Assembly (NCBI GenBank): GCA_964649615.1
Contig: CAZYPW010000004.1
Location: forward strand, 9,153 to 73,152
Origin: an uncultured Gammaproteobacteria bacterium
GTDB lineage: Bacteria > Patescibacteriota > Microgenomatia > Daviesbacterales > UBA10151
Direction: 5' to 3'
DNA: 64,000 bases
Positions 6,969 through 26,883 of this stretch are shown in pieces. Position 1 is the stretch's first letter, and the number at the start of each line of letters is the position of its first letter. Position numbers and translations under genes: made by a program. The notes under the pieces are model-generated. The model saw only the letters and a program-made list of their open reading frames with translations. It was not told the origin of the DNA and ran no database searches.

Positions 6969-6983
6969 AAAAGTTATACTTAA

Positions 6984-7919: not shown

Positions 7920-7921
7920 TT

Positions 7922-8404: not shown

Positions 8405-9792
8405 GAATATTTTAAACTAGCAATTTTTTGTGCAATTGTCAAAGACTTATTTTTGGCAGTACCTGTATGATTTTTTACATCAAGCAAATCCAGAATATCT
8501 GCGCTTTTTAAATATTTTCCGATTTCCGGATTGCTCTCTAACAAATCTTCCATCTGGTTCACTTCTCCATTTTGAATAACCTCCCATGCTTTCATAGAGA
8601 TTTCTCTTAAAACTTCATGCATTTTTTGCCTGTTGGCACCTTTTTTAACAGCCTCAACAATAATTACCTCTGTTACAGAAAAAGGCCAATATGTTAATAA
8701 GTTTTTCGTTATTCGTTTATCGTTTATCGTTAATCCATCAATAATATTATTTGCAGATATTAACATTTCATCTATGCTTAAAAACATCTCAGGGATAGCA
8801 ACCCTTCTATTGGCAGAATCATCCAGAGTCCGCTCAAGTAACATGTGTGAAGCATTATCCCAGGACGTTCTGGATAAACTAACAACCAGTCTTGCAAGCG
8901 AGCAGATCTGTTCGGATTTAACAGGATTTTTCTTAAAAGGCATGGCAGATGAACCAACTTGTTTATCCCCAAATGGCTCCTGCCATTCTCCAAAATTTGC
9001 CGACTGCATAATACGCAAATCAAAAGCAAACTTATTCAAACTTTGCGCAATTGATGCAAGTAAATTCCCCAACCAAACCTCTATTTTTCTGGGAGATGTT
9101 TGATTTGTGATTTCATATGCTTCTATCCCCAGTTGCTCTAATACATTAACTTCCATCTCTTCGGCTTTTTTCTCATCCAGCAATTTTATATAACTTGCGG
9201 ATGTTCCCACCGCCCCTTTCATACCTTTGCCCTTTAAATTCTTTTTAACAAATTGTAAAAGTTCTAAGTCCATTAAAAGATCTTGCGCATAAAACGCAAA
9301 TCTATAACCTAACGTTGTAGGTTCTGCCGGTTGCAAGTGGGTATACCCCATACAAACAAAGCCAGCATATTGTTCAATTTTTTTGCCAAAACTTTTCAGC
9401 AGTTTAATTAATCCGTTTTCTATAATACTCAACGCTTCAGAAATTCTGATAGTTTCACCATTATCAGAAATATCCATTGAAGTAGCACCAAGGTGAATTT
9501 TTCCTCCCCCAATCTTTGCCTTTTCTGCAAACTCTTTGATAGCTGCAACAACATCATGCCTTACGTCTTTTTCAATTTCCCAAATTCTTTCTATATTCAA
9601 ATTATCCTGATGATTTTCTAAATCTTCCAGTTCTTCTTTAGATACCAAACCTTCTTCACTTTGAGCCCTTGCTAACTCTACCCAAACCTTTCTCCAGATT
9701 TTGTATTTATTTTCTTCAGACCAAATTTTCCTCATTTCGCCTGAGCCATACCTCCAGGAAAATACTGATGTATAATTTTTAAAATCTTTCAT
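8401..9792 (-). CDS. purB: adenylosuccinate lyase PurB
   Basis: Fumarate-lyase signature GSSAMPFKKNP and HLGATSMDI. Confidence 0.9.
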   Translation of the reverse strand: MKDFKNYTSVFSWRYGSGEMRKIWSEENKYKIWRKVWVELARAQSEEGLVSKEELEDLENHQDNLNIERIWEIEKDVRHDVVAAIKEFAEKAKIGGGKIHLGATSMDISDNGETIRISEALSIIENGLIKLLKSFGKKIEQYAGFVCMGYTHLQPAEPTTLGYRFAFYAQDLLMDLELLQFVKKNLKGKGMKGAVGTSASYIKLLDEKKAEEMEVNVLEQLGIEAYEITNQTSPRKIEVWLGNLLASIAQSLNKFAFDLRIMQSANFGEWQEPFGDKQVGSSAMPFKKNPVKSEQICSLARLVVSLSRTSWDNASHMLLERTLDDSANRRVAIPEMFLSIDEMLISANNIIDGLTINDKRITKNLLTYWPFSVTEVIIVEAVKKGANRQKMHEVLREISMKAWEVIQNGEVNQMEDLLESNPEIGKYLKSADILDLLDVKNHTGTAKNKSLTIAQKIASLKYS

Positions 9793-9794
9793 AA

Positions 9795-11330
9795 TTAATG
9801 CCTAAATGCCCTCCTTTTTGAAAATACCATAGTAATCCCCAGCTCATCAGCAGCATCTATTGAGGCTTTATCATTTACAGACCCGCCTTGCTGCAAAATT
9901 GCAGATATATCATATTGTGCAGCCAATCGTACGCAGTCGTCAAATGGGAAAAAGCTATCCGAAATTAAGATACCTTCTTTAGCATAGTCTGCTGCTTGCT
10001 CCAAAGCAATTTTGGTTGCCCCCACTCTTGAAGTTTGACCCGAACCAATACCGCGAGTCTGCGGAATTTCTTTATCTATTACAATGACTGCATTAGACCT
10101 GACTGCTTTGACTGCTTTAAAACCAAATTTCATCAACTCTAATTGTTTTTCTGTAGGCTTGTTTTTAGTTACAACCTCCCAGTCCTTAAAACTATCTTCT
10201 ATATTATCATCAAAATCCTGAAGTAATGCTGCACCGGAAAAATATTTAAGGTCCCATTTTTCTGATCTTACAGAAGGGATCTCACCGAAGGTATAAATCC
10301 CCATGCTCTTTCTGACCTTTTTCAATAACTCTAACGCTTGATCGCTTATACCCGGTACTGCCACAATATCTATATTTCCTTCTTTCTCATTTTTAAAAGT
10401 AGCAACCACTTTAGCAGCAGCTTCGTCCATTTTTTTATTTATCACCATCACTCCCCCAAAAGCAGAAACAGGATCTGCTTTAACAGCTCTATCTAGCGCT
10501 TCCTCTGCATCTTTCCCGGTTGCTATTCCGCAAGGGCTTAAATGTTTGATCACACAAGCCGCAGCTTCTTTAAATTGCCTGACTGTTTCCAGACCTGCAT
10601 AAATATCACCAATATTGGTACCGGATAATTCCCTGCCCCAAAGGTGTTTTAATTTTGAGAGAGGTGAATTTGTTTTCGGTAATAAATAAAATGCGCCCTG
10701 CTGATGAGGATTTTCTCCATAACGTAGAATATTTGTTTTTCGCAACGGAATTGTTATTTCGTTGGGAAACTCCTGCCTGCCGGCAGGCAGATCTCCTTCG
10801 GAAAAATAATTTCCAATTTGGCTGTCATAAAAAGATAAATGATAAAAAGATTTGGCTGCCAGCTCTTTTCTTTTTTGCACGCTCTTTATAGCATCATCCA
10901 ACTGACCATAATCATTTGAATCTACCATCACTACTACATTTTCATAATTTTTACCGGCTGCTCTAATCATTGTTGGACCCCCCACATCTATATTTTCAAC
11001 ACCGGGTTTCTGTTCAAATGGATAAAGATTACAAACAACAACATCAATTTGTGGAACACCTAATTTTTTTGCTTCTTCAATATGTTTAGGATTTTTCCGG
11101 TCAAACAATATGCCACTTTCTATTTGAAAAGAAATGGTTTTCATCCTACCATCAAAGCAGTCTCTGGGGTTTCCGGTAATTTCTTCAATTGGAGTAACTT
11201 CAATCCCACTTTTTTTAAGTGTTTCAAAAGTCCCGCCTGTGGAGATTATAGTGTAGCCATTTTTTACTAAAACTTTTGCAAAATCTTCTATGCCGGATTT
11301 GTCATATACACTTAAAAGCGCATACTTCAT
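9795..11330 (-). CDS. purH: bifunctional AICAR transformylase / IMP cyclohydrolase PurH
   Basis: N-terminal MGS-like domain (ALLSVYDKSGIEDFAK...ISTGGT) plus a C-terminal AICARFT domain. 511 aa. Confidence 0.9.
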   Translation of the reverse strand: MKYALLSVYDKSGIEDFAKVLVKNGYTIISTGGTFETLKKSGIEVTPIEEITGNPRDCFDGRMKTISFQIESGILFDRKNPKHIEEAKKLGVPQIDVVVCNLYPFEQKPGVENIDVGGPTMIRAAGKNYENVVVMVDSNDYGQLDDAIKSVQKRKELAAKSFYHLSFYDSQIGNYFSEGDLPAGRQEFPNEITIPLRKTNILRYGENPHQQGAFYLLPKTNSPLSKLKHLWGRELSGTNIGDIYAGLETVRQFKEAAACVIKHLSPCGIATGKDAEEALDRAVKADPVSAFGGVMVINKKMDEAAAKVVATFKNEKEGNIDIVAVPGISDQALELLKKVRKSMGIYTFGEIPSVRSEKWDLKYFSGAALLQDFDDNIEDSFKDWEVVTKNKPTEKQLELMKFGFKAVKAVRSNAVIVIDKEIPQTRGIGSGQTSRVGATKIALEQAADYAKEGILISDSFFPFDDCVRLAAQYDISAILQQGGSVNDKASIDAADELGITMVFSKRRAFRH

Positions 11331-12454
11331 GTTAGTATTTTTCTAAGTTCTCCTTTTTCTATTGCCTCTTTAATTTCCATTGCTACTCGCCTTCCCATAG
11401 AAATATTTTTCCCGTATAAATACCCGCTATATGGAGTGGCAAAAATCCCGGGACTTCCCGGCATTCGCGGGGAAACATCAAAAACAATAATTTCCTTTTT
11501 AGGAGGGCCAGGAATGATTATTGTTTGTAAACCAAACGGCCCTATGACTCCTGGCTTATATAGTTTCTGAGAAGCTTTCACAAATCTTTCTCCCATTGCA
11601 AATGCATCTTCTAGTAGAGATTCCAGTACAGTCACTGATACATGGCCTGCCTCTTCAAAAGTTATCCCATACTTATCTCTAACAAGTTTATAATCATCCG
11701 GCGCTACCTTCGTATATCCTTCTGCATTAGTTTGCCTTCTTGTATCTGTTCCTATTAATTCAACTCTTTTATGCAAAGGAGAATAGAAATAATTGAAGTT
11801 AACTTGAACACCTACTAAGTATTCTTCTAATATGGCTCTATCAAGAGCTTCTTGAGTGATTCTACCCTGTCCAATTAATTCTTGTGACCGAGAATAAAAA
11901 GTTTCAGGGGAGTTAACTATAAAAAATCCCCTCTCGAAACCAAGATATTTAGCCATTACTTTCACAACACAGGGGCCATCGATTTCGCTTGGATTTTTAA
12001 ATTGTTTCGGATATCTAATCCCTGCCTCTTCCATAATTTTATATTGATCCACATTATTCCCAGTTCCTCGCTCTTCACATTTTAATAAAAACTTGTTTCC
12101 AAACATGGGGACTTTAAATTTTTTCTCAATTGCATTGTAATCGTTTATATAAACCTCAAAAGACCTGTGGGGAATAAATATGGCATTTCTTTTTAAGAGT
12201 TCTTTTTGAACTTTCTCCGATAAAATATCTTTGAAATTTTCTAACTCAATAACTTCATCAACACAACCTATTTCTCCATTACTTTTGTAATATTTGGCAT
12301 AGGTTTTATCTCTACCCTTTTGCACAATTACCAAAGTTTTAAAACCTAAATCTTTAGCTCCCCTGCAAACATCTAACGCAGAGTGACTACCTAGAACGGC
12401 TATTGTAATATCAGAAAGTTTTAAGTTTTGAATTGTAGTTTTGAGTTTTGACAT
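11327..12454 (-). CDS. purP: archaeal-type 5-formaminoimidazole-4-carboxamide ribonucleotide synthetase PurP (paralogue 1)
   Basis: ATP-grasp PurP family (DUF1246/DUF1297). Motifs LGSHSALD, FYSPL..VEL.G.D.R..TN, PFGLQ and MGRRVAMEIK match PurP as recalled from Methanocaldococcus. Confidence 0.75.
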   Translation of the reverse strand: MSKLKTTIQNLKLSDITIAVLGSHSALDVCRGAKDLGFKTLVIVQKGRDKTYAKYYKSNGEIGCVDEVIELENFKDILSEKVQKELLKRNAIFIPHRSFEVYINDYNAIEKKFKVPMFGNKFLLKCEERGTGNNVDQYKIMEEAGIRYPKQFKNPSEIDGPCVVKVMAKYLGFERGFFIVNSPETFYSRSQELIGQGRITQEALDRAILEEYLVGVQVNFNYFYSPLHKRVELIGTDTRRQTNAEGYTKVAPDDYKLVRDKYGITFEEAGHVSVTVLESLLEDAFAMGERFVKASQKLYKPGVIGPFGLQTIIIPGPPKKEIIVFDVSPRMPGSPGIFATPYSGYLYGKNISMGRRVAMEIKEAIEKGELRKILT

Positions 12455-12467
12455 TTGAGTTTTGAGT

Positions 12468-13484
12468 TTAATCTAAAACCTCCTTTAGCTTATTTTGCGA
12501 AATTGCATTCTTAATCTCGCGGGCGATACGGCGTCCTGTAGACATTGGTTCATCATACAGTAAATATGTATATGGAGATCCATTAATAAAACAATTTGTC
12601 CCTGCAACTATTCGGGCTGAGATTTCTATTACATAAATTTCCTCAGAAGATGTAATAATTGTTTCCAGACAAAACGGCCCAAATAATCCTTTCGGAGAAA
12701 CTATTTTTTGAGATGTTTCAATAACTCTTTGAGCCATATCCACAGCATCTGCAACCATAGATTCCCGAACAGCCATTGGAATGTTTGCAACAACTTCAAA
12801 AGATGGTTCTATATTTAACCCTCTTTGGTTTTTAGCAGGAATCCTACCTAATGAGTCAACATTTGTCTCATATCTTTTATCAACACTCATTAACTCTACT
12901 TTTTTGGTTAACGGTGAATAAAAGAAATGAAAATAAACAGGTACTCCTATTACATATTCCTGAACCATAAACCGCTCTTCCGAAAAGGTTTTTAATTTTT
13001 CATCAAGTTCTTTCTGATTTCTGGCAGTAAAATACCCCTTCCCACCGGCAGCACCATATGATTTTACAATCACCGGCCTATCAGTCTTATCACCTTTTCT
13101 AAATCTGTGGGGAACCTTAATTCCTGCTTCTTCCATCCATATTCTTTGCATCTTTCTGTCCTCCTCCCAATCTAGTACTTTCTTATTTCCAAAATAAGGA
13201 ACTTTCATCTTTTTATTTTCATCCATTCCTAAATATGCCACAAAAGATCCATGTGGAATTATTATGCAATTATCTTTAAGTAACTTTCTTTCTAAGTTTG
13301 GGAAATCGCGCCAGGATTTAATTTTTATTATTTCATCAATGAAGTTTTCGTATGATTTATAAAGTGGAATTCTATCAGAAGTACAAACTACAGCAGTTTT
13401 AAAACCCTCCTGTTTTGCACCCTTGAGAATCTGCAGCGCAGAGTGAGAACCTAAAGTGACAATAGTTATATTTTTAGTTCCCAT
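12468..13484 (-). CDS. purP: archaeal-type PurP family protein (paralogue 2)
   Basis: Same family motifs as paralogue 1 (LGSHSALQILKGAKQEGF, FFYSPLTKKVELMSVDKRYETN, PFCLE, STGRRIAREIKN). About 45% identity to its neighbour by eye. Confidence 0.75.
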   Translation of the reverse strand: MGTKNITIVTLGSHSALQILKGAKQEGFKTAVVCTSDRIPLYKSYENFIDEIIKIKSWRDFPNLERKLLKDNCIIIPHGSFVAYLGMDENKKMKVPYFGNKKVLDWEEDRKMQRIWMEEAGIKVPHRFRKGDKTDRPVIVKSYGAAGGKGYFTARNQKELDEKLKTFSEERFMVQEYVIGVPVYFHFFYSPLTKKVELMSVDKRYETNVDSLGRIPAKNQRGLNIEPSFEVVANIPMAVRESMVADAVDMAQRVIETSQKIVSPKGLFGPFCLETIITSSEEIYVIEISARIVAGTNCFINGSPYTYLLYDEPMSTGRRIAREIKNAISQNKLKEVLD

Positions 13485-13486
13485 AA

Positions 13487-15222
<1,736 letters not shown>

Positions 15223-15234
15223 AATAATATTATA

Positions 15235-16755
15235 TCATTCCCACTCCATAGTTGCTGGAGGTTTGTTGGTGATATCATAAACTACACGATTTACTTCCGG
15301 AACTTCTGTCACAATCCGAACAGATATTTTTTCTAAAACCTCATAAGGCAATTTTGCAAAGTTTGCAGACATGGCATCTGTTGCTTCTATTGCTCTAATT
15401 GCTATTGTTTCACCATATGCGCGATTATCTCCCCTAACTCCGGTTGTTTTAATTCCAGTAAAAACAGCAAATGTTTGCCAGAGCTTTTCATTCTTTAATT
15501 CTTCAGTCACAATTGCATCTGCTTTTCTTAAAATTTCCAACTTTTCTTCAGTTACTTCCCCAATAATTCTGACAGCCAGACCAGGTCCGGGAAAAGGTTG
15601 TCTTTGGGTAATACTTTCAGGCAGTCCTAAAATATCTCCGATTTTTCTGACCTGGTCTTTATAAAAATTTCTTAAAGGCTCTACTAAAACTAATTTCATA
15701 TTTTCTGGTAATCCCCCTACATTATGATGTGACTTAATATTTTGTGCATGCTTGCTCCCCTTTGATTCAATTACATCAGGATAAATTGTTCCTTGCACCA
15801 AAAATTTTGCATTAATTTTCTTTGCTTCTTTATCAAATACTTCAATAAAGGTTTTCCCAATAGCTTTTCTTTTTTCTTCTGGGTCAGTTATACCTTTTAA
15901 TGCTTTTAGCATCTCTCTCGAAGCATCTATAATATCAACATTCATTTTGTAGCGATCTTTAAAAATCTTCTTTAGATTTTCTGTTTCACCCTCCCTCATT
16001 AATCCGGAGTCCACATAAACTGATGTTAAATTTTTACCAATTGCTTTATGTGCTAAAAGTGCTGCAACTGATGAATCAACTCCACCGGACAGTGCACAAA
16101 TTACTCTAGCTTCTCCAATTGAATCCTTTATATCTTCTATAATATTTTCTACAAAGTCTTCATTTATTTCTGATTTTTTTGGAGTGAACCCACATATCAT
16201 TAAAAAGTTTTCTAAAACTTGTGCGCCAAATTCGCTGTGCACAACTTCCGGATGAAATTGAATCCCATAAATTTTATCCTGGCGGTTTTCAATAACTGCA
16301 TAGGGAATTGTTTTTGTGGTAGCAAAATTTTCAAAACCTTTTGGCAATTTCACCACATTATCTCCATGACTCATCCAAACATTAAAACTCTTTGGTAAAT
16401 CTTTTAATAATTCTGAATTCTGAATTCCAGATTCTAAATTTAAAACTGCTGGTCCATATTCTTTTCTGTATCCAGGCTTAACTTCTCCGCCTAATAAATG
16501 ACACATTAATTGCTGTCCATAACAAATGCCTAAAATCGGAATTCCCAAATTAAAAATTTCTTTTTCAACAGTTGGTGAATTTTTTTCATAAACAGATGCC
16601 GGGCCTCCTGAAAGAATAATTCCCTTAGGTTTTAGTTCTTTTATTTTCTCCAATGCAACTTCGGGAGTTGCAATGTAAACTTCTACCCCTAATTCCCTGA
16701 TTCTTCTGGAAATTAAATGTGCGGTTTGTGATCCAAAATCAACTAGTATAATCAT
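15235..16755 (-). CDS. guaA: GMP synthase (glutamine-hydrolysing)
   Basis: N-terminal class-I GATase (MIILVDFGSQTAHLISRRIRELGV...ICYGQQL), ATP-PPase SGGVDSSV motif and C-terminal dimerisation domain. Confidence 0.95.
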   Translation of the reverse strand: MIILVDFGSQTAHLISRRIRELGVEVYIATPEVALEKIKELKPKGIILSGGPASVYEKNSPTVEKEIFNLGIPILGICYGQQLMCHLLGGEVKPGYRKEYGPAVLNLESGIQNSELLKDLPKSFNVWMSHGDNVVKLPKGFENFATTKTIPYAVIENRQDKIYGIQFHPEVVHSEFGAQVLENFLMICGFTPKKSEINEDFVENIIEDIKDSIGEARVICALSGGVDSSVAALLAHKAIGKNLTSVYVDSGLMREGETENLKKIFKDRYKMNVDIIDASREMLKALKGITDPEEKRKAIGKTFIEVFDKEAKKINAKFLVQGTIYPDVIESKGSKHAQNIKSHHNVGGLPENMKLVLVEPLRNFYKDQVRKIGDILGLPESITQRQPFPGPGLAVRIIGEVTEEKLEILRKADAIVTEELKNEKLWQTFAVFTGIKTTGVRGDNRAYGETIAIRAIEATDAMSANFAKLPYEVLEKISVRIVTEVPEVNRVVYDITNKPPATMEWE

Positions 16756-16766
16756 ATATTTTTTAC

Positions 16767-16848
16767 TGTCATCCTGAACAAAGTGAAGGATCTCTAGATT
16801 TACTCAAGAACAAGTCTAGAGATTCCTCTCTAATCGCTCGGAATGACA
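16767..16848. repeat. 82-nt imperfect palindromic (MITE/REP-like) element filling the purQ-guaA spacer
   Basis: tgtcatcctgaac...gctcggaatgaca termini are inverted repeats. Internal arms aggatctctagatt / gtctagagattcctc are also complementary. A related copy lies inside purL at 18655-18725. Confidence 0.6.
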
Positions 16849-16850
16849 AT

Positions 16851-17630
16851 TTATTTTCCTTCCTTTACAAACTGTACCATATCTTCAAAGATAAAAGCTC
16901 CATGTGGTTTTTCAATTTTTTCTCTTCTCCAATTTGGATATTGGGTTATATCCACAAATTTTTCTGGGTGTGGCATAAGTCCTAAAACTCTACCTGTTGG
17001 ATCTGTTACTCCGGCTATGGCATTTAAAGATCCATTTGGATTTTGGGGATAAGTTTGTGTAGGATTTCCATTACCATCAATATATCTGAAGATCACCAAA
17101 TTCTGTGCTTCTATTTTCTTCAGTGTCTCTGTGTTTGCAAAGAACTTTCCCTCTCCGTGATTTATCGCAAACCAGCCAATATTTTTTTCTCCCTTTAAAA
17201 ATACACATTTACTTTTTTCAAGTCTTAACTTTATCCATCTGCATTCAAAATGTCCGCTGTCATTAGATGTTAAAGTAGCATCCATTTCTCCCAGATTTCC
17301 AAAAGGCAATAATCCTGTTCTGATAAGAGTTTGGAAACCGTTACAAAGACCAACAATAATCCCTCCCTTATCTCTAAACTTTTCAATTTCCTTTTTTAAA
17401 AAACTCATAAGTTCCACTGCCAGAATTTTACCTGAAGCAATATCATCACCATAGGAAAATCCTCCAGGAAGTGCCAGAATATTAAAATTCCTTAAACTTT
17501 TGGATTTATCCCGTAGTTCATTAACATGAACAAATTTAGGGGAACCTCCAAACTTTTTGAAAGCATAGAAAAGTTCATTATCACAATTAGTCCCATCTGA
17601 CTGTAATATACAAACCTTTACACTCCTCAT
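16851..17630 (-). CDS. purQ: FGAM synthase glutaminase subunit PurQ
   Basis: VCILQSDGTNCD, LALPGGFSYGDD and catalytic GLCNGFQ. Start ATG overlaps the purL TGA in an ATGA arrangement; the ORF track extends 30 nt further. Confidence 0.85.
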   Translation of the reverse strand: MRSVKVCILQSDGTNCDNELFYAFKKFGGSPKFVHVNELRDKSKSLRNFNILALPGGFSYGDDIASGKILAVELMSFLKKEIEKFRDKGGIIVGLCNGFQTLIRTGLLPFGNLGEMDATLTSNDSGHFECRWIKLRLEKSKCVFLKGEKNIGWFAINHGEGKFFANTETLKKIEAQNLVIFRYIDGNGNPTQTYPQNPNGSLNAIAGVTDPTGRVLGLMPHPEKFVDITQYPNWRREKIEKPHGAFIFEDMVQFVKEGK

Positions 17631-20383
17631 CCGAATATTTCCTTCATTGGTTTCTGCCAAGCATCTTGTAATTGCTTCATATCCGCGCTAAATAATCCCT
17701 TAACTCCTAATTTCTCCTCTTTTATCGTTTTCCCTAATATCTTAAAAGGTATTCCTTTGAATAATTTCTTAGCATTTTCCTCATCATCTACTTCAACAAT
17801 AAAACATCCTGCTGTTTCGTTAAATAGAAAATCACCTCGAAGGTGGGCTTTGACTCCTTCGAAGTAAAGCTTTACTCCACAATTTCCTCCAACTGCCATT
17901 TCAAAAATTGCAGTAATTAATCCTCCTTCTGAAACATCATGAGACGCTAAAACCTGTCCACTAATAATTGCTTTGTGCACTTTCTTCAAAACCTTAGGTA
18001 GTAGTTTTAAATCCACTTTTGGTACACCTCCCAGGTGGGCCATGACTCCTGGGAGGTGAGCTGCTTGGCCTACCAAAACTACAGTTGATCCCGTCTTTTT
18101 AAAATCAGAAGATACTGTTTTTTTAACATCCGGTATTTTTCCGAAAACTGACATAACTAAAGTCGGTGGGCTATGTATTATTACTCCATTAGACCCCCGA
18201 TAGGTGGCAAATAAACTGTCTTTTCCGGAAATCACAGGCAAATTTAGCGCTTTCATAAAATCAACTACTGCATCTACAGCTCTATCTAATTTTCCCAACC
18301 ATTCTGCATCAGGATATGGCCATATATAGTTGTTTATCAAAGAGGCATTCTTATAATCTCCACCAACAGCAACATAATTTGAGATTGCCTCAGTTGCAGA
18401 CCAGATACTTCCCCAGTAAGAATCCTCTCTTGTTAACTTTGGATTAAGTCCGTGGGAAACAACTACTCCATAAGGTTTATCTAAAATTGGTTTTACAATG
18501 GCTGCATCTTGAGGTCCATCCATCCCTTCTCCGGCATATGGATGTAGCGCATTTGTTCCTTGAACATTGTGATCATAAAGCCTTAATATTGGTTCTTTAG
18601 AATTTACATCACCTGATGCTAAAACTTTTTCTAAAATCTTAGCCCAATCCACTTTGTCATTCTGAACGATTAGTGAAGAATCCCTAGATTTAATCTTGAG
18701 ATTCCTCGCTTCGCTCGGAATGACAGCGGGAGAAGTTGCCTTCATTACCCTTTGAGGCAATCCCCCAAACAAAAACTTCATTTCCAAATCTCCTACTTTT
18801 TCCTTACCATAAAAAACTTGTAACTTTTTACTTCCATCAAACTGCGCAATTTCAGTTGCTTCACTATTATATTTGTTAGCAATTTCCAAAAACTTTTTAA
18901 GATTCTTCTTAGGCAAGATTACCAACATTCTTTCTTGTGATTCTGAAACCCAAATCTCCCATGGTGCAAGTCCCGGATATTTAACAGGAGCCTTTTCTAG
19001 GTGTACCTTTACTCCTAACTTTTCTCCCATCTCTCCAATAGCAGATGAAAATCCTCCAGCTCCCAAATCCTGTACAGCCCTTATTAAATTTTTATCTCTA
19101 GCTTCTAAAATGGCGTCAAACATCCTTTTTTCCTCAATGGCATTACCAATTTGCACAGCAGTGGTATTAACTTCTATAGTTTTTTCGCTCATTACAGCAG
19201 AGGAAAAAGTTGCCCCATGTATCCCATCTCTGCCAGTCCTTCCTCCAACTACTACTCCTATATCACCAATCTCAGGAGAACCTTTTTTAGCTTTGCTTTT
19301 TGGTAAGATTCCATAAGCTCCCACTAACACAATTGGCTTGGCTTTAAAATCCTCATCAAAATGAAATGATCCATTGTTGGTAGGGATTCCTATTCTGTTT
19401 CCATAATCTTTCACTGCTGTAACTACTCTTTTTAAAATATAGTCAGGTGGTAAAGTTCCAGCAGGCAGTTTATTTTTATCTAAGCCAGGAGGGGCTAAAC
19501 AAAAGATATCTGTAGAAACTATAGCCTTTGCACCTTGCCCTGTGGCCACCACATCTCTAAAAACTCCCCCGGATCCGGTCATAGCTCCTCCGTATGGTTC
19601 AATCGCAGATGGAGCATTATGGGTTTCTGCTTTACCATTAATGGCCCATCCCCCGTAAAAATCCATTACTCCGGCATTATCAACAAATGCAGAAACTATA
19701 TTTTTATTGTGTTTCAAAGCTTCTTTTTTAAGACGAGTAAATAAAGGCTCTTTTTCTTTTCCATCAATAATTAGTTTGGCTTTAAAAGTTTTGTGAGCAC
19801 AATGTTCACTCCATGTTTGAGCAATAGTTTCCAGCTCCAAATCAGTTGGATCTCTTTTAATATTTTTAAAACAACTTTGAATTGTTTTCATTTCCTCAAG
19901 ATTTAAAAATAGTTTATACCTTGATAATTCCATTAATTCTTCACCAGTCATATTTCTTAATTTGATAATAGTAGTTTTACCTGAAGTTCCTTTAATTATT
20001 AATGTTTTCGGCTCTTCTGTAACTATATGTTCAACCATAGGATTAAAAAGGCCTTTTAAAACTTCTTTGCTGGGTGAATGAAGAAAACCATATTCATGAG
20101 AAGAATCGGCTGCAATTAATTTAATTCCTAAATCTTCTGAGGCTTTTAGAATAGATCCTACCTCAGGATTCATTACCCCAGGTTTGTAAGCAATTTCTAT
20201 GATTTCTTTAGCGCCTTCTATTATTGGAGAATTTAAAGTATATGTTTGAATAATACTTTCACATAAAAATTTTTCAGCTAATTCCTTGGCTTTCTTTTCT
20301 GAAACCCCTTCTAACCTGTATACCTTAGCTTGTTTTACATCTCCCTTATTCTCAATACTTTTAACCCTGACAACTTGTATCAT
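17627..20383 (-). CDS. purL: FGAM synthase PurS-PurL fusion (phosphoribosylformylglycinamidine synthase II with N-terminal PurS domain)
   Basis: A ~80-aa PurS-like N-terminus (MIQVVRVKSIENKG...) is fused to PurL AIRS-like tandem domains (EPYGGAMTGSGGVFRD, DLGAGGFSSAIGEM). The preferred ATG at 20383 immediately follows the purD stop. Confidence 0.9.
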   Translation of the reverse strand: MIQVVRVKSIENKGDVKQAKVYRLEGVSEKKAKELAEKFLCESIIQTYTLNSPIIEGAKEIIEIAYKPGVMNPEVGSILKASEDLGIKLIAADSSHEYGFLHSPSKEVLKGLFNPMVEHIVTEEPKTLIIKGTSGKTTIIKLRNMTGEELMELSRYKLFLNLEEMKTIQSCFKNIKRDPTDLELETIAQTWSEHCAHKTFKAKLIIDGKEKEPLFTRLKKEALKHNKNIVSAFVDNAGVMDFYGGWAINGKAETHNAPSAIEPYGGAMTGSGGVFRDVVATGQGAKAIVSTDIFCLAPPGLDKNKLPAGTLPPDYILKRVVTAVKDYGNRIGIPTNNGSFHFDEDFKAKPIVLVGAYGILPKSKAKKGSPEIGDIGVVVGGRTGRDGIHGATFSSAVMSEKTIEVNTTAVQIGNAIEEKRMFDAILEARDKNLIRAVQDLGAGGFSSAIGEMGEKLGVKVHLEKAPVKYPGLAPWEIWVSESQERMLVILPKKNLKKFLEIANKYNSEATEIAQFDGSKKLQVFYGKEKVGDLEMKFLFGGLPQRVMKATSPAVIPSEARNLKIKSRDSSLIVQNDKVDWAKILEKVLASGDVNSKEPILRLYDHNVQGTNALHPYAGEGMDGPQDAAIVKPILDKPYGVVVSHGLNPKLTREDSYWGSIWSATEAISNYVAVGGDYKNASLINNYIWPYPDAEWLGKLDRAVDAVVDFMKALNLPVISGKDSLFATYRGSNGVIIHSPPTLVMSVFGKIPDVKKTVSSDFKKTGSTVVLVGQAAHLPGVMAHLGGVPKVDLKLLPKVLKKVHKAIISGQVLASHDVSEGGLITAIFEMAVGGNCGVKLYFEGVKAHLRGDFLFNETAGCFIVEVDDEENAKKLFKGIPFKILGKTIKEEKLGVKGLFSADMKQLQDAWQKPMKEIFG
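18655..18725. repeat. 71-nt palindromic element inserted in-frame inside purL coding sequence
   Basis: tgtcattctgaacgattagtgaagaatccctagatttaatcttgagattcctcgcttcgctcggaatgaca shares termini and inner arms with 16767-16848. The gtcat...atgac core is 69 nt (23 codons) and encodes a linker ...ATSPAVIPSEARNLKIKSRDSSLIVQNDK... without breaking the frame. Confidence 0.6.
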
Positions 20384-21678
20384 CTTTGTAATCTTTGAAG
20401 ATCCCTCCAACCAATATCAGTTCTATAATGCAAATTATCTCCTTCAATACTAATAAGCGCCATGGCGTCATATGCTTTTTTTCTTGCCTCAACTAAATCC
20501 TTACCTTCTCCCACAAGATGAAATACCCTACCGCCATTTGCATAGAATTTATTACCTTTCCTTTTAATCCCTGCCCCATAAATTGATATACGAGGTAACC
20601 GCATAGCCTGTTCTAATCCAAAAATTTGTTTACCCTTAACGTTTGAATAATCATCAGGATATCCTTTTGAACAACCAGCAATACTTATACGAACCTTTTC
20701 ATCAAATTCGATTTTTAGTTGATTAAGCCTTTTTTCTAAAACTGTTTCGACTATATCCACATAATCTGTTTTTATGCTTGGCAAAATAACCTCTGCTTCC
20801 GGATCTCCCCACCTGCAATTAAACTCAATAATCTTAACCCCATTCTTTGTTAGCATACCTCCTAGATATAAAATTCCCTTATACGGTCTTCCTTCTTCCG
20901 TCATGCCAGAGAGTGTCGGCCTGATAATTGTTTGTTCTATATTGCGAATAATCGAAGTAGAGATAGCACCTGTTGGAGCAACACTACCTATACCGCCTGT
21001 GTTTGGCCCCTTATCACCATCATAAATCGTTTTATGATCTTGGGAAGATTTGGTAATAATGAAATTTTCACCATCACATATGGCAAAAAGTGTAAATTCC
21101 TCACCCACGAGTGCTTCTTCAATTAGAAATGTTTCACCTGATTTTTCAAACTTACTCATTTCTCTGATTGCCTTTTTTGCCTCTTTTTTATTTTCTGCTC
21201 TTATAACTCCTTTTCCTAAAGCAAGACCCGAGGCTTTGATAAATAAAAGCTGATCAGAAAGTTTGTTGATGTAATCAATTGCTTCTTTTTGATTGGTAAA
21301 GGACTTAAACCTCGGAACCGGAAGATTATATTTGACCATAAAGTTTCTGGCCCAATCTTTACTCCATTCGAGTTCTGATGCTTCTTGAGTGGGACCAAAA
21401 GCTTTGATTCCCAATTTTTGGAATTTATCAACATAACCTGCCGCAATAATATCATCTTGCCCAACATCTACTAAACCTATTTTTTCCTTTTTACAAACCT
21501 TTAAAATTCCATCAAAATCCATCATTCCAATTTCCGGATAATTTTTGATTTTGTCATTTCTAAAATCTGTTAAACCATTACCGGGCGTTATAATTACTTT
21601 TTTTACCAATTTAGATTTGGCATAAGTTACTGCTAAAGCGTGTTCTCTACCATTTTGTCCAATTACTAAAATATTCAT
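20380..21678 (-). CDS. purD: phosphoribosylamine-glycine ligase PurD
   Basis: MNILVIGQNGREHALA N-terminus and an ATP-grasp core. The ATG overlaps the purN stop (ATGA). Confidence 0.9.
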   Translation of the reverse strand: MNILVIGQNGREHALAVTYAKSKLVKKVIITPGNGLTDFRNDKIKNYPEIGMMDFDGILKVCKKEKIGLVDVGQDDIIAAGYVDKFQKLGIKAFGPTQEASELEWSKDWARNFMVKYNLPVPRFKSFTNQKEAIDYINKLSDQLLFIKASGLALGKGVIRAENKKEAKKAIREMSKFEKSGETFLIEEALVGEEFTLFAICDGENFIITKSSQDHKTIYDGDKGPNTGGIGSVAPTGAISTSIIRNIEQTIIRPTLSGMTEEGRPYKGILYLGGMLTKNGVKIIEFNCRWGDPEAEVILPSIKTDYVDIVETVLEKRLNQLKIEFDEKVRISIAGCSKGYPDDYSNVKGKQIFGLEQAMRLPRISIYGAGIKRKGNKFYANGGRVFHLVGEGKDLVEARKKAYDAMALISIEGDNLHYRTDIGWRDLQRLQR

Positions 21679-22283
21679 GATTCCTCCCCGCATAATTTTG
21701 CTAATATATCAACATACAGCTGGTTTTCTTTAACTTTTAGTCTTGTATATAAAGATTCCACAGTATCTCCAGGTAGAATCTTTTCAAAGCATCTTCCTAA
21801 AACTGGCCCAAAATCAAATTCATGGGAAAGAAAATGATTTGTACATCCAGCATATGTTGCTTTTTGATCTAGAAAATTCTGCATTGCTTTATCTGTCATT
21901 TTACCTTTATTCCATAAGGCATCTGTTCCATCCGGATTTTTAACTTTTCCATACATGGTGTCCGGAATTAACCCAGGGTGTGTATTTAAAATTCGATTTG
22001 GAAAAGCATCAATTACTTCATCCAAAATAATTTGCTTCCATCCAGCCAGACAAATAAAATCCGAATTTAATTTTTTTAAAAGAGGTAAGAGTTCTTCTTT
22101 TTTTGGAATTATTTTAATGGGGAGTTGGGATTTTTCAGCTCTCTTTAGCCATGATGCATCAGGTGTATCGGATATCACTGCCACAATTTCTGCCTTAATT
22201 TCTTTGGAATTTATCCCATCAATAATTGCTGACAAGTTTGTACCCTCTCCAATGTTAGAAATAAGTACAGCAATTCTCTTCAT
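21675..22283 (-). CDS. purN: phosphoribosylglycinamide formyltransferase PurN
   Basis: MKRIAVLISNIGEGTNLSAIIDG and formyltransferase core LNTHPGLIP with His/Asp catalytic residues. 202 aa. Confidence 0.8.
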   Translation of the reverse strand: MKRIAVLISNIGEGTNLSAIIDGINSKEIKAEIVAVISDTPDASWLKRAEKSQLPIKIIPKKEELLPLLKKLNSDFICLAGWKQIILDEVIDAFPNRILNTHPGLIPDTMYGKVKNPDGTDALWNKGKMTDKAMQNFLDQKATYAGCTNHFLSHEFDFGPVLGRCFEKILPGDTVESLYTRLKVKENQLYVDILAKLCGEES

Positions 22284-22286
22284 AAA

Positions 22287-23708
22287 TTAATCTATTATTT
22301 TTATCTCCTTTGCTCTCTCCCCAATATCAACCGGATATTTGCCTGTAAAACAGGATGTGCAAAGGCTGTCTTCTGAAATTCCTACGGCTTTTAGAAGCCC
22401 TGGATAAGACAAATAATACAGAGCGTCAACCCCAATTTCTTTTTCGATTTCTTTGACCGTTTTTCTGGCTCCAATTAGATCCTTTTGCCTTGGTGTATCA
22501 ACACCATAAAAATCAGGGTATTTAACAGGAGGCGAGGAAATTAAAAAGTATACTTTTTTAGCACCTGCCCCTTTTATCATATCTATAATTTGCTTGCAGG
22601 TAGTACCCCTTACAACTGAATCATCAATTAAAACCACAATTTTCCCTTTTAGAATATGCTTTAGGGGATTTAATTTTAATCTCACTCCTTGATTTCTGGT
22701 ATGTTGTTCAGGCATGATAAATGTTCTGTGAATATAACGGTTCTTAATAAGCGCCGGGTAAAAAGGAATTCCTGACTCTTTGGAAAATCCTATTGCAGCA
22801 GGAATTCCAGAGTCAGGCACCGGCACTACCACATCTCCCTTTACCTTAAATTCCTTAGACAATTCTACTCCTAAATTTTGCCTCACCTCATCAACACTTT
22901 TACCCATTAAATAACTATCTGGCCTGGCAAAATAAACAAATTCAAAAACATCTAATTTTTCCTTCCCTTTTTCTATCTGATAACTTTTTAAGCCACTGCT
23001 ATCTATAGAAATCATCTCTCCGGGTTTAACATCTCTTATAAATTTTGCCCCAATTATATCCAGTGCGCATGATTCTGATGCAACAATAAACCCTCCATTC
23101 AATTTTCCTAAACACAAAGGCCTTATTCCAAAAGAGTCCCTGACAGCAACAATTTTCTCTTTTTCCATAATCAATAAACAAAATACTCCTGTAAGTAACG
23201 GGTAGGCCTTTTTAATTGATTCTTCCAAAGATAAATCCTGTCCCATGTAAAAGGCTATTGCTTTTGCAATCATTTCAGAATCATTTGCTACCTTTATTGG
23301 AATATTTTTTTCTGACAAGAATTCTTTTAATTTTTGTGTAGATGGCAGATTACCATTATGAGCTAAAGCAATTAACTCGCCATTTTTCAATCTTTCTATC
23401 ACAGGTTGGGCATGTTCAATTTTCGAATCACCTGATGTGGAATAACGGTTATGGCCAATCGCCAAATGGCCTTTTAATTTCTTTAAATCTTTTTCTGCGA
23501 AAACTGCAGAAACCAACCCCATGCCTTTATGAACATAAATTTGTTTTCCATCTGAAGATGCTATACCTGAAGATTCCTGACCCCGATGTTGAAGAGCCCA
23601 AAGCCCGGGATGAACTAAACGTGCCGTCTCAAATCCCTTACCGTATACTCCGAATATCCCACACTTTTCTTTTAACTTATAATCAAAAGTAGGATTTTGT
23701 TTTCTCAT
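22287..23708 (-). CDS. purF: amidophosphoribosyltransferase PurF
   Basis: N-terminal nucleophile CGIFGVYG (Ntn GATase) and a PRTase domain with the VLIDDSVVRGTT loop. Confidence 0.9.
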   Translation of the reverse strand: MRKQNPTFDYKLKEKCGIFGVYGKGFETARLVHPGLWALQHRGQESSGIASSDGKQIYVHKGMGLVSAVFAEKDLKKLKGHLAIGHNRYSTSGDSKIEHAQPVIERLKNGELIALAHNGNLPSTQKLKEFLSEKNIPIKVANDSEMIAKAIAFYMGQDLSLEESIKKAYPLLTGVFCLLIMEKEKIVAVRDSFGIRPLCLGKLNGGFIVASESCALDIIGAKFIRDVKPGEMISIDSSGLKSYQIEKGKEKLDVFEFVYFARPDSYLMGKSVDEVRQNLGVELSKEFKVKGDVVVPVPDSGIPAAIGFSKESGIPFYPALIKNRYIHRTFIMPEQHTRNQGVRLKLNPLKHILKGKIVVLIDDSVVRGTTCKQIIDMIKGAGAKKVYFLISSPPVKYPDFYGVDTPRQKDLIGARKTVKEIEKEIGVDALYYLSYPGLLKAVGISEDSLCTSCFTGKYPVDIGERAKEIKIID

Positions 23709-23763
23709 AGCTTAATATAACTTAAGGATGGTCTTTAGTCAAGTCAACAGGAGAAAAATTTAA

Positions 23764-24018
23764 TTACTTTGGATTAATATTAATCTGGCTTTTTAATAAA
23801 TCCATTTCTTCCTGAAAAATCTTATCAAAGTTTGGAACTTTAGATAGAAGAAAATATCTAACAGAGTTACCAGTTTGATCTTGAGAGTTTAATTCTTCAA
23901 TTTTTGCCATATCTTCATCTGTTAAAACTGGGGCTATTTTGATATATGCTGCCTGTAACGCTAAATTTACTAACTCATCAGCTACTTTTTGTTGATTCTG
24001 TGTTAAGTCATTCATCAT
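23764..24018 (-). CDS. hypothetical small acidic protein, co-oriented with and abutting the 633-aa gene
   Basis: 84 aa. Its start abuts the stop of the upstream 633-aa ORF (coordinates share 24018). Confidence 0.4.
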   Translation of the reverse strand: MMNDLTQNQQKVADELVNLALQAAYIKIAPVLTDEDMAKIEELNSQDQTGNSVRYFLLSKVPNFDKIFQEEMDLLKSQININPK

Positions 24019-25919
24019 TATTGAGTCTCCTCTCTAACTTGTTGTGTAATGTTCTCACTAATCTCTTGCCATTTTCTTGGGTCTAAACCTGAACCAGCTG
24101 TTTTTAATTTAAACCAAGTATCTAAATTATCGCTATTAACATTCATTTTCCAGACATTCCCTAACACAATTTTATCACCATCTACTACTGGGGAGAGAAG
24201 ACCAGGTCTTTTATTCTCTTTCGAATATATTATTGAAGCTCTTATTCTAGAAGTAAAATCACCAACCATCTGATCAAAAGTTCCTGAACCATAATAAGAA
24301 TCGAGCTCCTTTTTTAATAATTCAAGTGTCTTGAGCATTTTAGGATCACCTTCTGAGTGTGCGATATTTTGGCTCCCCAGCTGAGCCGCCTCCTGGGCTA
24401 CATCAGGATTCATTGCTTTCGCAAGGTCAGCCTCAGCTAATCCTTTTACAGAGTATCCTTCTATATTATAGGGATCTGCGCTAGGGTTATTTGGTTGTAT
24501 TTTTTCTTGAAAATCATCACGTATAGTAAAATCATTCCAAGCATATTGGTTGTTCCCTAATCCTCTTCCACTTGCAAATTCCTGTAATGTAGTTGGCTCT
24601 GTAGTCATAAAAGGACTACGAGTCTCAGGTGGAGGTTTTGGTCCTGACTCTCCTGCCCCAGCGCTTGCTGGAACTCTAGAATCTTGGCCAGACTGTACAG
24701 CGCCTATCGTATCCCTTGGAATCCCAGCAAGTAACACTAATACCAGCGGGAGAACTGCTAATCTACAACGTCTTCTCTGTTCCCCTGTTGCTCTTATTCT
24801 CATTAAAGCATCCACTTTACGGGCTATCGCTGGATCAACCTTAGATTCTCTTTCACCCCACCTTTCCCTAAATCCTCTAATCTTATTTACTAATGCATCA
24901 ACACCCAGTACACCAATTCCTATTAAATCTCTCATAAATTCTCTAACTCTTGATGCATAACTAAGTCCCTCTAATTCAGAAAATTTCCCTTCTATTGTGA
25001 CTGGGCGGGATTCCGATGAACTTCGTGGACCATTTGAAGGAGGAGGTATTACTATTACAGCTGGATCTGAGGGTAGTTCTGCAGGAGCTGGTTCTTCAGC
25101 AAAACCTCCAAAAGTATGCCCCATCTCCTCATGAACAACTCCAATTTTATCTCTAACTGGATCAGATGGGAAAAGTTGAGGAACCTCTTTTGATGGAAAA
25201 GCAGTTGTCTCTTCTTTTTTGGGAACTTGTAATAACCTGCTGTCTTTTAGACGTGCTATGGCTGCTTGTTTGTCTTCTTCTTGAGACCCAGTTGAGGTGA
25301 GAGGATTTTTCCAGATCCTTCTGGCTTCTTCAGCTATCCTAGATTTTTCCATTGGGTTACTTTCATCTAGAGCATTTGGGAAAGCTTCTGTATATGGAAT
25401 ACTACTATCTTCAAGTACCCGGGCTTCCTCCTGATATGTTCTTAACTGACCCTCTAGGCGCTCTATCATCTGGGGGCTACTCCATCTACTTGCTCTTTGT
25501 TGCTCTAATTCAGCTTTTGTATTAGCTATATCATCTTTTGCACTAGCTATTAACCCGCTTACATCTAAACCTTCATTCCTCTCGTAGATCTCTCCAGTTT
25601 CTGGATTTTTGAATGTAGTTTTTAAAGCATGCTCAGGACGGTCGGTTATAACTAAAATACCATGTCCAGACATACCCCTTAATCCTTTTTGAAACGTCCT
25701 GAATGCAGCAAACTGATTCCGTTGCTGATTAGTTAAAAGCCCGGTATCTGCTAAATCATCAATTTCTATATTAGGAGCTATATCTCTATGGAGTCTCTCT
25801 ATCTTCACTCCCCATCTGTGAGTAGTTCCATTGAAGGCTTTCATTACTTGTTCTCTAGTGGCAACGCCTTCTGGAGGAGGCGTTGCTTCAACTGGAGGAC
25901 GATCGGACAGTTCAGCCAT
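24018..25919 (-). CDS. large hypothetical Pro/Glu-rich protein with HExxH motif; composition atypical for the locus
   Basis: 633-aa ORF noticeably GC-richer than its neighbours (stretches of ~45-50% G+C by eye). Contains VVHEEMGHTFGG (HExxH), proline-rich linkers and one internal hydrophobic segment (AVLPLVLVLLAGIP). No family recognised. Confidence 0.5.
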   Translation of the reverse strand: MAELSDRPPVEATPPPEGVATREQVMKAFNGTTHRWGVKIERLHRDIAPNIEIDDLADTGLLTNQQRNQFAAFRTFQKGLRGMSGHGILVITDRPEHALKTTFKNPETGEIYERNEGLDVSGLIASAKDDIANTKAELEQQRASRWSSPQMIERLEGQLRTYQEEARVLEDSSIPYTEAFPNALDESNPMEKSRIAEEARRIWKNPLTSTGSQEEDKQAAIARLKDSRLLQVPKKEETTAFPSKEVPQLFPSDPVRDKIGVVHEEMGHTFGGFAEEPAPAELPSDPAVIVIPPPSNGPRSSSESRPVTIEGKFSELEGLSYASRVREFMRDLIGIGVLGVDALVNKIRGFRERWGERESKVDPAIARKVDALMRIRATGEQRRRCRLAVLPLVLVLLAGIPRDTIGAVQSGQDSRVPASAGAGESGPKPPPETRSPFMTTEPTTLQEFASGRGLGNNQYAWNDFTIRDDFQEKIQPNNPSADPYNIEGYSVKGLAEADLAKAMNPDVAQEAAQLGSQNIAHSEGDPKMLKTLELLKKELDSYYGSGTFDQMVGDFTSRIRASIIYSKENKRPGLLSPVVDGDKIVLGNVWKMNVNSDNLDTWFKLKTAGSGLDPRKWQEISENITQQVREETQ

Positions 25920-25984
25920 ACTTAATTTAGTCTATTAAATAGCTTATCAAAATACAAGTTAAGATGATATACTAAAACAAGATT

Positions 25985-26341
25985 ATGGATTCCAAAAGAT
26001 TTAGTATCCTTTCTTTTAAATATGCATTCGAGGGTATGTTTGCCGCTTTGAAAGAAGAACTTAATTTAAAAATTCATTTTATAATTGCCCTTTTAGTTTT
26101 AGGCCTGTCATATTTTTTGCAAATTCAAAGACAGGATTGGATTAATGTCATAATTATCATTGGTTTAGTCTTTACAGTAGAGTTAACCAATACTGCAATT
26201 GAGGCAGTTGTGGATGCTTTTACTGATAAAGAGCACCCAGGTGCTAAACTTGCCAAAGACATCTCAGCCGGAGCAGTATTAGTGGTTTCAATTGTGGCAG
26301 CTATCATTGGAATAATTATCTTCCTGCCATACTTATCTTAA
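25985..26341 (+). CDS. dgkA: diacylglycerol kinase
   Basis: ELTNTAIEAVVD motif and three TM helices typical of prokaryotic DgkA. A TATACT -10-like box lies ~25 nt upstream. Confidence 0.8.
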   Translation: MDSKRFSILSFKYAFEGMFAALKEELNLKIHFIIALLVLGLSYFLQIQRQDWINVIIIIGLVFTVELTNTAIEAVVDAFTDKEHPGAKLAKDISAGAVLVVSIVAAIIGIIIFLPYLS

Positions 26342-26883
26342 TGGATAACTTAGGATTTTTCTTTTTAATATTTGGATTAAATAATCAGAATAATTTTTTA
26401 GATTCTCTAATGATTTTTGGGGCAGAATATGTAATTTATATTTCTTTTGCACTAATCTTTGTTCTGGCTTTTAGAGGGCAGATTAAAGAAAGAAAAGCTT
26501 TAATCTTAGTCTGTTTATCTATACCAATTGTGGTACTAATGATTAAGTTTATTCATCTTTTTTTATTTGAGCCAAGACCATATATTGCACAGGATATCTC
26601 CCCTTTGATACCTGATACCAAAGAAGATGCCTCTTTTCCCTCCAGACACACTGCTTTGATGTTTACTCTCGCCTTTTCATATTTCTTTTATCAATCCAAA
26701 TGGAGATTCCATTTTTTAATTATGGCTCTTTGGGTAAGCCTATCAAGAATTTTTGTGGGGGTACATTACCCACTGGATATTATAGGAGGAATTATGACAG
26801 CTTTTGTTTCTGTTTTTATTGCCTGGAAAATTAAGGAAAAGTTAAAAAGAGGTCTTGGTCTTAACCAATCTTTGCAAAGCTAA
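26341..26883 (+). CDS. PAP2-family phosphatase (undecaprenyl-diphosphatase-like)
   Basis: PAP2 motifs KFIHLFLFEPRP (KxxxxxxRP), SFPSRHT (PSGH) and SRIFVGVHYPLD (SRxxxxxHxxxD). Confidence 0.8.
   Translation: MDNLGFFFLIFGLNNQNNFLDSLMIFGAEYVIYISFALIFVLAFRGQIKERKALILVCLSIPIVVLMIKFIHLFLFEPRPYIAQDISPLIPDTKEDASFPSRHTALMFTLAFSYFFYQSKWRFHFLIMALWVSLSRIFVGVHYPLDIIGGIMTAFVSVFIAWKIKEKLKRGLGLNQSLQS

Follow-up and report, generated by a model that had tools for sequence, protein, structure and literature searches.

What are the two genes that lie between purF and dgkA in a 64,000-nucleotide stretch of contig CAZYPW010000004.1 (the whole stretch is called the window below), and how did they come to be there? 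An initial annotation, made from the letters of the DNA, described a G+C-rich insert of recent horizontal origin and proposed an effector/immunity or polymorphic-toxin module whose large protein carries an HExxH motif. We find that the pair is accessory, not core, and that it occupies a variable junction between the back-to-back promoters of purF and dgkA. On balance, we lean towards a structural and organisational reading, in which the large gene encodes a membrane-anchored surface protein and the small gene encodes a linked partner.

The presence of two open reading frames (ORFs) between purF and dgkA, as first described, is borne out by their coordinates and by the Pfam matches of the flanking genes. 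Both predicted proteins are identical to NCBI entries that belong to a Candidatus Daviesbacteria bacterium, a member of the Microgenomates. The features of the locus are as follows.

22287-23708, minus strand: purF (GATase and PRTase domains; Pfam).
23709-23763, minus strand: 55-bp spacer with purF's own predicted promoter, TTGACT-17-TATATT (23742-23714).
23747-25961: approximate span of the indel in comparison with pair-less loci, with AAGTCAAGT (plus strand; purF -35) on one side and TGATATACT (dgkA -10) on the other.
23764-24018, minus strand: small gene, 84 amino acids (ORF call; exact match to HYS92_01175).
24016-24034, minus strand: putative coupling junction read from the sequence, with a GAGAGGAG Shine-Dalgarno (24027-24034) and a TAATG stop/start overlap (24016-24020).
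24018-25919, minus strand: large gene, 633 amino acids (ORF call; exact match to HYS92_01180, hypothetical protein).
25920-25984, both strands: 65-bp divergent control region shared by dgkA and the large gene, with the dgkA promoter and a -10-like element of the large gene.
25985-26341, plus strand: dgkA (Pfam).
26341-26883, plus strand: PAP2 phosphatase, after dgkA (Pfam).

We established that the pair is accessory by a reverse search, in which the window's dgkA was queried against metagenome contigs. This yielded 80 loci with a dgkA relative, and the pair was found in none of them, the nearest relatives included, while all positive controls were matched. In many of the 80 loci purF lies 64-78 bp from dgkA, and the two genes abut in loci L018, L020, L022, L026, L031, L036 and others. 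An alignment of the junction with L018, L020, L022, L026, L031 and L034 places the purF -35 and the dgkA extended -10 of the pair-less loci just 3-14 nt apart. The slot is empty in most related contigs. Where it is filled, it may hold DUF4153 alone (L042), the pair together with DUF4153 (L002, L009-L011), a HicA/HicB-like pair with a 175-aa ORF (L041), a cupredoxin-like ORF of 143 aa (L049) or an unknown ORF of 300 aa (L028). Because the purF/dgkA junction is empty or differently filled in relatives, the term insert is correct in the sense of a presence/absence polymorphism.

Loci that do carry the pair, found through its two proteins, share the gene order cmk-M16-(gdhA)-PAP2-dgkA on one side of the junction and large-small-(DUF4153)-purF-purN-purD-purL on the other. 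Their flanking genes are just 55-76% identical to those of the window, and the pair has the same position and orientation throughout. At least five divergent lineages, interleaved with non-carriers, have it in this slot, and carriers make up three of the 19 loci on the purF tree. In 99-100% of resamples (bootstrap 0.99-1.0), every carrier had a pair-less locus as a closer relative than any of the other carriers.

Window: nearest pair-less loci L018, L028 and L034 (purF 87-90%; M16 of L018 79%); other carriers, purF 74-76%.
Carrier L008: nearest pair-less locus L041 (purF 91%).
Carrier L009: nearest pair-less loci L022 (purF 83%) and L042 (dgkA 84%).

The general pangenome concept of flexible islets at conserved intergenic hot spots describes a similar situation, with a single core-gene junction and varying cargo (here none, the pair, DUF4153, a HicAB-like pair or a cupredoxin-like ORF). 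It differs in that the present junction lacks an integrase, a tRNA, repeats and any compositional signal. Specifically, there is no tRNA at the pair, and the entire 64 kb gave neither a tRNA gene nor an Rfam match that reached the gathering score. Flanking repeats are limited to short chance matches, including a 5-bp CAAGT on both sides that is within chance expectation. Searches for phage or plasmid homologues of the pair, and for paralogues of it in the window, found none.

Within the slot, the small gene appears to be translationally coupled to the large gene, as suggested by the TAATG overlap and the GAGAGGAG Shine-Dalgarno. The stop codon of the large gene shares one nucleotide with the start codon of the small gene, in line with the initial description of abutting ORFs, and a GGAG lies 8 nt upstream. 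In every related locus that was recovered, the two genes likewise abut or overlap. This strong GGAG at the internal gene contrasts with the large gene, which has no Shine-Dalgarno and a -10-like TAAATT 4 nt before its ATG (25920-25930, minus strand). The predicted dgkA promoter reads TTATCA-18-TATACT with a TG, and its extended -10 (TGATATACT) at 25964-25973 on the plus strand lies 11 nt before the ATG. The purF -10, TATATT, ends 5 nt before the ATG and is conserved in all related loci, pair-bearing and pair-less alike. The promoters of purF, dgkA and the large gene look leaderless or nearly so. With a putative promoter and coupling signals of their own, the two genes are best explained as an autonomous transcription unit.

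The view that this unit arrived recently was based on its G+C content. The initial annotation had described a markedly G+C-rich region, and at a scale of 2.2 kb the pair region is indeed the maximum of the window (0.398 against 0.357, with a standard deviation of 0.015), a value reached by 0.3% of 2.2-kb windows. The description was nonetheless overstated, as only the large gene of the pair is G+C-rich (0.412 against 0.357 for the window), whereas the small gene is AT-rich (0.294) and falls below the background. Long stretches of 45-50% G+C were not recovered either; the best 300-nt window in the pair region reaches just 0.477.

The G+C excess of the large ORF is confined to the first and second codon positions. 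At these positions its G+C is 0.543 and 0.442, against window means of 0.463 and 0.337, while at the third position (GC3) it is 0.251 against 0.271 (standard deviation 0.043). The amino-acid content of the ORF, combined with the synonymous usage pooled over the window, predicts a G+C of 0.420; the observed value is 0.412, a difference of -0.007 (standard deviation 0.014). Its synonymous-choice score of 0.170 is within one standard deviation of that of the other window genes (0.190 +/- 0.039). Compared to the other window ORFs, the large protein is enriched in R (7.4% against 4.3%), P (7.1% against 4.1%), A (8.2% against 6.5%) and E (9.2% against 7.6%) and depleted in K, I, L, Y and F; the proline excess agrees with the Pro-rich linkers noted at first. 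The most G+C-rich stretch (0.552) encodes the outer of its two linkers. The excess thus reflects a protein rich in R, P, A and E, mostly in disordered linkers, and not foreign codon usage. Composition gives no evidence of a foreign origin, and with GC3 and synonymous choice both native, G+C does not support the proposed recent horizontal acquisition.

What the large protein may do was approached through an AlphaFold2 model, built from a 31-sequence alignment (mean predicted local distance difference test score, pLDDT, 79.9). Its predicted parts, all encoded on the minus strand, are listed from the N- to the C-terminus.

25200-25862, minus strand: N-domain, aa 20-240, helices and a small three-stranded sheet, predicted cytoplasmic (pLDDT 91-98).
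24960-25199, minus strand: linker 1, aa 241-320, Pro-rich, predicted disordered, holding HEEMGH (pLDDT 33-44; below 50 at about aa 250-319).
24780-24959, minus strand: predicted juxtamembrane helices, aa 321-380, with the family consensus motif DPxxAxKVxxLxxI+xP (pLDDT 61-79; modelled helices aa 321-375).
24717-24767, minus strand: predicted single transmembrane helix, aa 385-401 (Kyte-Doolittle 2.23; modelled helix aa 381-398).
24615-24716, minus strand: linker 2, aa 402-435, Pro/Ser/Gly-rich, predicted disordered and outside the membrane (pLDDT 35-43; below 50 at aa 401-431).
24021-24614, minus strand: C-terminal domain, aa 436-633, predicted extracytoplasmic, modular (pLDDT mostly 89-98; modelled domain about aa 440-633).

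Several features named in the initial annotation have a place in this architecture. The one internal hydrophobic helix is located at residues 385-401, and the C-terminal region of about 200 aa is folded in the model. Inspection of the N-terminus (MAELSDRPPVEATPPP...) revealed no hydrophobic signal-like segment, in agreement with the reported lack of a signal peptide. In the 15 residues on either side of the transmembrane helix, there are five K/R before and two after. This bias recurs family-wide, with four to seven before against zero to three after in nearly all members. By the positive-inside rule, the excess on the N side suggests an N-in/C-out orientation, so that the large protein would be a single-pass membrane protein with its N-domain inside the cell and its C-terminal domain outside.

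The N- and C-domains appear in the model as two confidently predicted folds without a match in PDB. Foldseek found no match for either domain in PDB or BFVD. Sequence-profile searches of PDB gave a best E-value of 0.59 overall, with none below 1 for the two large-protein profiles. Searches with the large protein in Pfam, NCBIfam, PHROGs and PADLOC also gave no family, and no weak Pfam match recurred across 31 members of its own family.

This family is both rare and modular. Among 1.84 billion representative proteins, an exhaustive profile hidden Markov model search identified 34 at E-value <=1e-3, and two scans of GTDB representative genomes, one with the large-protein alignment and one with the small-protein alignment, returned no match. 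The N-domain is the best-conserved part of the protein and has many invariant charged residues; its identity is 38-59% in the closer members (proteins P0002-P0021) and roughly 20-30% in more distant ones. The juxtamembrane motif is kept in P0025 despite a different N-terminus. The C-domain is either present at 27-43% identity or, in P0004 and P0016-P0020 for example, swapped for a sequence that is unrelated (10-17%). It also occurs without the N-domain (P0035, P0036 and P0039) and alone behind an N-terminal transmembrane anchor (P0033 and P0040). A resemblance of the alternative C-terminus of P0004 and of the L009 protein to LysM was seen by eye and dropped, as Pfam did not support it even at E-value <=5.

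Two further arrangements were observed in the family. The outer C-domain, with the motif GYS[VI]KG...NP.L...DP....TL..L, is present in two tandem copies in each of P0033 and P0035, both without the N-domain. Two giant proteins, P0037 (1768 aa) and P0041 (2076 aa), begin with the N-domain; P0041 has a Ser/Thr protein kinase domain at its C-terminal end (PF00069, E-value of 1.4e-25).

The initial annotation had placed neither protein in a known family, which remains true for the large protein. The small protein, however, is assigned by profile searches to Pfam family DUF5663 (PF18908). Searched directly against PF18908, it scores below the cut-off (E-value of 0.092 and 13.8 bits, with a gathering cut-off of 23.7 bits), and three of five close homologues match, all sub-threshold, with a best E-value of 0.0077. 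The assignment derives from profile A5, built from the homologues of the small protein, which retrieved 32 proteins. Eleven of these carry PF18908 (E-values of 1.9e-36 to 7.9e-8), and the carriers are 45-67% identical to the small protein, P0045 being the one at 67%. The small protein also shares the length of the family (the Pfam profile has 84 positions) and its conserved core, LTxEDxxKIExL...FLxSKVPNFDxIxxEE. It is acidic, as first described (13 D/E against 8 K/R), and is modelled by AlphaFold2 with four helices (mean pLDDT 85.7). Inspection of its sequence revealed no signal-like or transmembrane segment, and PDB contained no match to its fold or sequence.

We found no mention of DUF5663, and no relevant paper on Daviesbacteria, in the literature searched. 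In every context recovered here, the DUF5663 gene lies directly downstream of a gene for a protein of 433-682 aa without a Pfam match. This gene order is kept in unrelated genomic contexts as well as in the syntenic loci. The constant upstream partner, a large membrane protein, is an observation of the present analysis and not an annotated property of DUF5663. The partners themselves vary: those of L003 and L009 have a different C-terminus, that of L012 has no clear transmembrane helix and that of L016 has a different N-terminus. The small protein remains a DUF5663 protein, at 51-63% identity, beside at least three non-homologous types of C-terminus (the window, P0004/L009 and L012 types). Between carriers it is 52-81% identical, against 28-46% for the large protein overall and 42-61% for its N-domain.

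These observations are consistent with a membrane-spanning adaptor or sensor rather than an enzyme or toxin. In the reading that we favour, gene 1 would encode a cytoplasmic N-domain of about 220 aa, followed by a Pro-rich linker, the juxtamembrane helices, the transmembrane helix, a second linker and an outer domain of about 200 aa, while gene 2 would encode a small, acidic, four-helix cytoplasmic DUF5663 protein. The two products would interact physically, with DUF5663 binding to the large protein on its cytoplasmic side, either at the N-domain or at the juxtamembrane motif. The exchangeable outer domain would bind something at the cell surface, which may be a ligand, the cell wall or another cell, either a partner or a host. 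Together, the conserved cytoplasmic domain and DUF5663 would form the intracellular half of a surface link. A role in sensing or adhesion is a tentative suggestion on our part.

Several points weigh against this reading. The predicted topology of the large protein follows from the positive-inside rule, and the presumed interaction from gene linkage. No known homologue points to a specific function. The large protein of L012 has the N-domain and no clear transmembrane helix, while that of L016 lacks the N-domain and keeps DUF5663, which speaks against singling out one part of the large protein as the one that DUF5663 would bind. Finally, defence or conflict systems likewise occur patchily in variable slots.

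The proposed design can be compared with single-pass anti-sigma factors and membrane-tethered sensors, such as those of the RsgI or RskA type, which likewise have a cytoplasmic N-domain, one transmembrane helix, an exchangeable outer domain and a small cytoplasmic partner alongside. The likeness is in design only. The neighbours of the pair are purF, dgkA and PAP2, with no adjacent sigma factor gene; Pfam detects no zf-HC2, RskA or RsgI domain; and at 84 aa the partner falls well short of the size of a sigma factor.

One alternative concerns the age of the pair. The pair is not a compositionally foreign or recent arrival. Its native codon usage, and a divergence between carriers that matches that of the flanks, indicate that it has long been in the gene pool of this lineage. 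Between carriers, dgkA is 63-80% and purF 73-79% identical, against 52-81% for the small protein. The topologies of the trees differ weakly, and the sequences are short. The closest carriers, L002-L004, are closest for dgkA, the small protein and the C-domain alike.

Two histories would fit these data, and we consider them about equally probable. Repeated gain, or exchange of cargo through the flanks, would account for carriers being a minority, for a slot that takes unrelated cargo and for pair-less junctions that are compact and without remnants. Ancient presence with repeated loss would account for the same position and orientation, the native codons, the flank-deep divergence and the lack of a divergence step. 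No such step, as would mark a recombination tract, was found beside the junction in the comparison with L018. In this comparison, nucleotide identity to the window is about 0.83 in purF and 0.64-0.83, mostly about 0.70, across dgkA-PAP2-gdhA-M16. The difference between the two flanks of L018 could reflect gene-specific constraint or separate flank histories.

If loss were the rule, the pair might be an ancestral envelope or division scaffold that was once core and has repeatedly been lost. Such an origin would suit the fully syntenic placement in at least five divergent lineages, the flank-like divergence with L002-L004 closest for both pair and flanks, the native codon usage and the divergent arrangement with dgkA and PAP2, which are lipid-carrier genes. 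It would, however, require many independent clean deletions, each leaving the promoters 3-14 nt apart and no remnants. The low share of carriers on the purF tree and the acceptance of unrelated cargo in the slot also speak against it. We regard an ancestral scaffold as unlikely.

The slot could also be a defence islet, with the pair acting as an anti-phage or other conflict system in which a membrane sensor or effector works with a small partner. The presence/absence polymorphism and the changing cargo, a toxin-antitoxin pair included, would suit such a system, as would two genes with a modular outer domain and a family with 34 representatives in 1.84 billion proteins. PADLOC matched neither protein, however, and nuclease, NTPase, TIR, SIR2 or pore-forming domains were found in none of the 31 Pfam-scanned family members. 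Moreover, the other cargo of the slot is mixed, comprising cupredoxin-like and DUF4153 membrane proteins, and the flank-like divergence of carriers suggests long residence rather than rapid turnover. A conflict system thus seems quite unlikely.

A more specific version of the adaptor or sensor reading would make the pair a transmembrane coupling device particular to the Candidate Phyla Radiation (CPR) and built from two undescribed folds. Its exchangeable surface domain would sense a ligand of the host cell or environment, and its cytoplasmic domain would recruit or release DUF5663 as the signal. The fusion of the conserved cytoplasmic domain into a giant protein that bears a Ser/Thr kinase bears on this idea, to which we give only a small chance.

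The module proposed at first, be it toxin/immunity, effector/chaperone or polymorphic toxin, would have a toxic C-terminal domain that the small protein neutralises or chaperones. Polymorphic toxin cassettes such as those of the CDI (contact-dependent inhibition), Rhs and LXG systems encode a protein with a conserved N-terminal part and a C-terminal domain that varies, followed directly by a small gene. The pair resembles them in its tightly coupled downstream gene and exchangeable C-terminal domain, and the patchy distribution and the HicA/HicB-like pair in the slot of L041 would also fit. In such cassettes the downstream protein would be expected to change with the C-terminal domain; here, the small protein stays a DUF5663 protein when the C-terminus is swapped and shows higher conservation than its large partner, the reverse of what immunity proteins typically show. 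This constancy is our main argument against a toxin/immunity module. In addition, the large protein matches no toxin, LXG, Rhs, CDI, trafficking, secretion or defence family and keeps a conserved membrane anchor with positive-inside flanks, suggestive of a resident membrane protein. Secretion-system genes were absent from the 31 window ORFs scanned with Pfam, in which all matches were to housekeeping or DUF families. We therefore regard the toxin proposal as very unlikely.

The HExxH motif that drew attention at first is present, as HEEMGH at residues 263-268 (nt 25116-25133, minus strand), where 0.007 occurrences are expected by chance in this one protein; it has no apparent functional role. 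An alignment with the three closest homologues (P0002, P0003 and P0004) places it in an insertion that they lack. The segment is predicted to be disordered (pLDDT 38-44) and belongs to linker 1, the least conserved region of the large-protein family, which is gappy and 0-39% identical. Because it is missing in homologues and lies in a disordered, unconserved linker, we interpret HEEMGH as a chance occurrence. Just one other HExxH occurs among the window ORFs, and it is genuine: it belongs to the RseP-like M50 protease (43586-44674), which Pfam detects readily. No peptidase family matched the large protein (Pfam and NCBIfam) or the 31 family members (Pfam). A zinc metalloprotease with HEEMGH as its catalytic motif has next to no chance of being correct, and a zincin was rejected, since the motif is neither conserved nor part of a helix within a folded catalytic domain.

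The wider window contains further features of note. Positions 4876-23708 hold a gene cluster for nearly the whole de novo purine pathway, with purM-like, prs, purC, purB, purH, purA, guaA, purL, purD, purN and purF genes. In this CPR genome, two adjacent archaeal-type PurP paralogues (DUF1246/DUF1297; 11327-12454 and 12468-13484) lie beside a bacterial purH (9795-11330). A 401-aa protein of DUF5667, another uncharacterised Pfam family, is encoded at 42352-43557 on the minus strand with a slight overlap with its neighbour. It lies beside the RseP-like M50 site-2 protease, which has PDZ domains and is also on the minus strand. Window genes are overwhelmingly on the minus strand, and the cumulative GC skew falls steadily across positions 1-64000.

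The case shows that raw G+C can mislead and that a lone HExxH does not make a protease. It provides the first consistent genomic partner for DUF5663, in the form of a rare, modular family of predicted single-pass membrane proteins that is absent from Pfam. The dgkA/purF promoter junction offers a handle for studying surface and contact proteins, as well as gene flux, in CPR bacteria. If the pair does prove to be a coupling device, this would be the first function for DUF5663 and would reveal a new family for signalling or adhesion that bears on the episymbiotic way of life.

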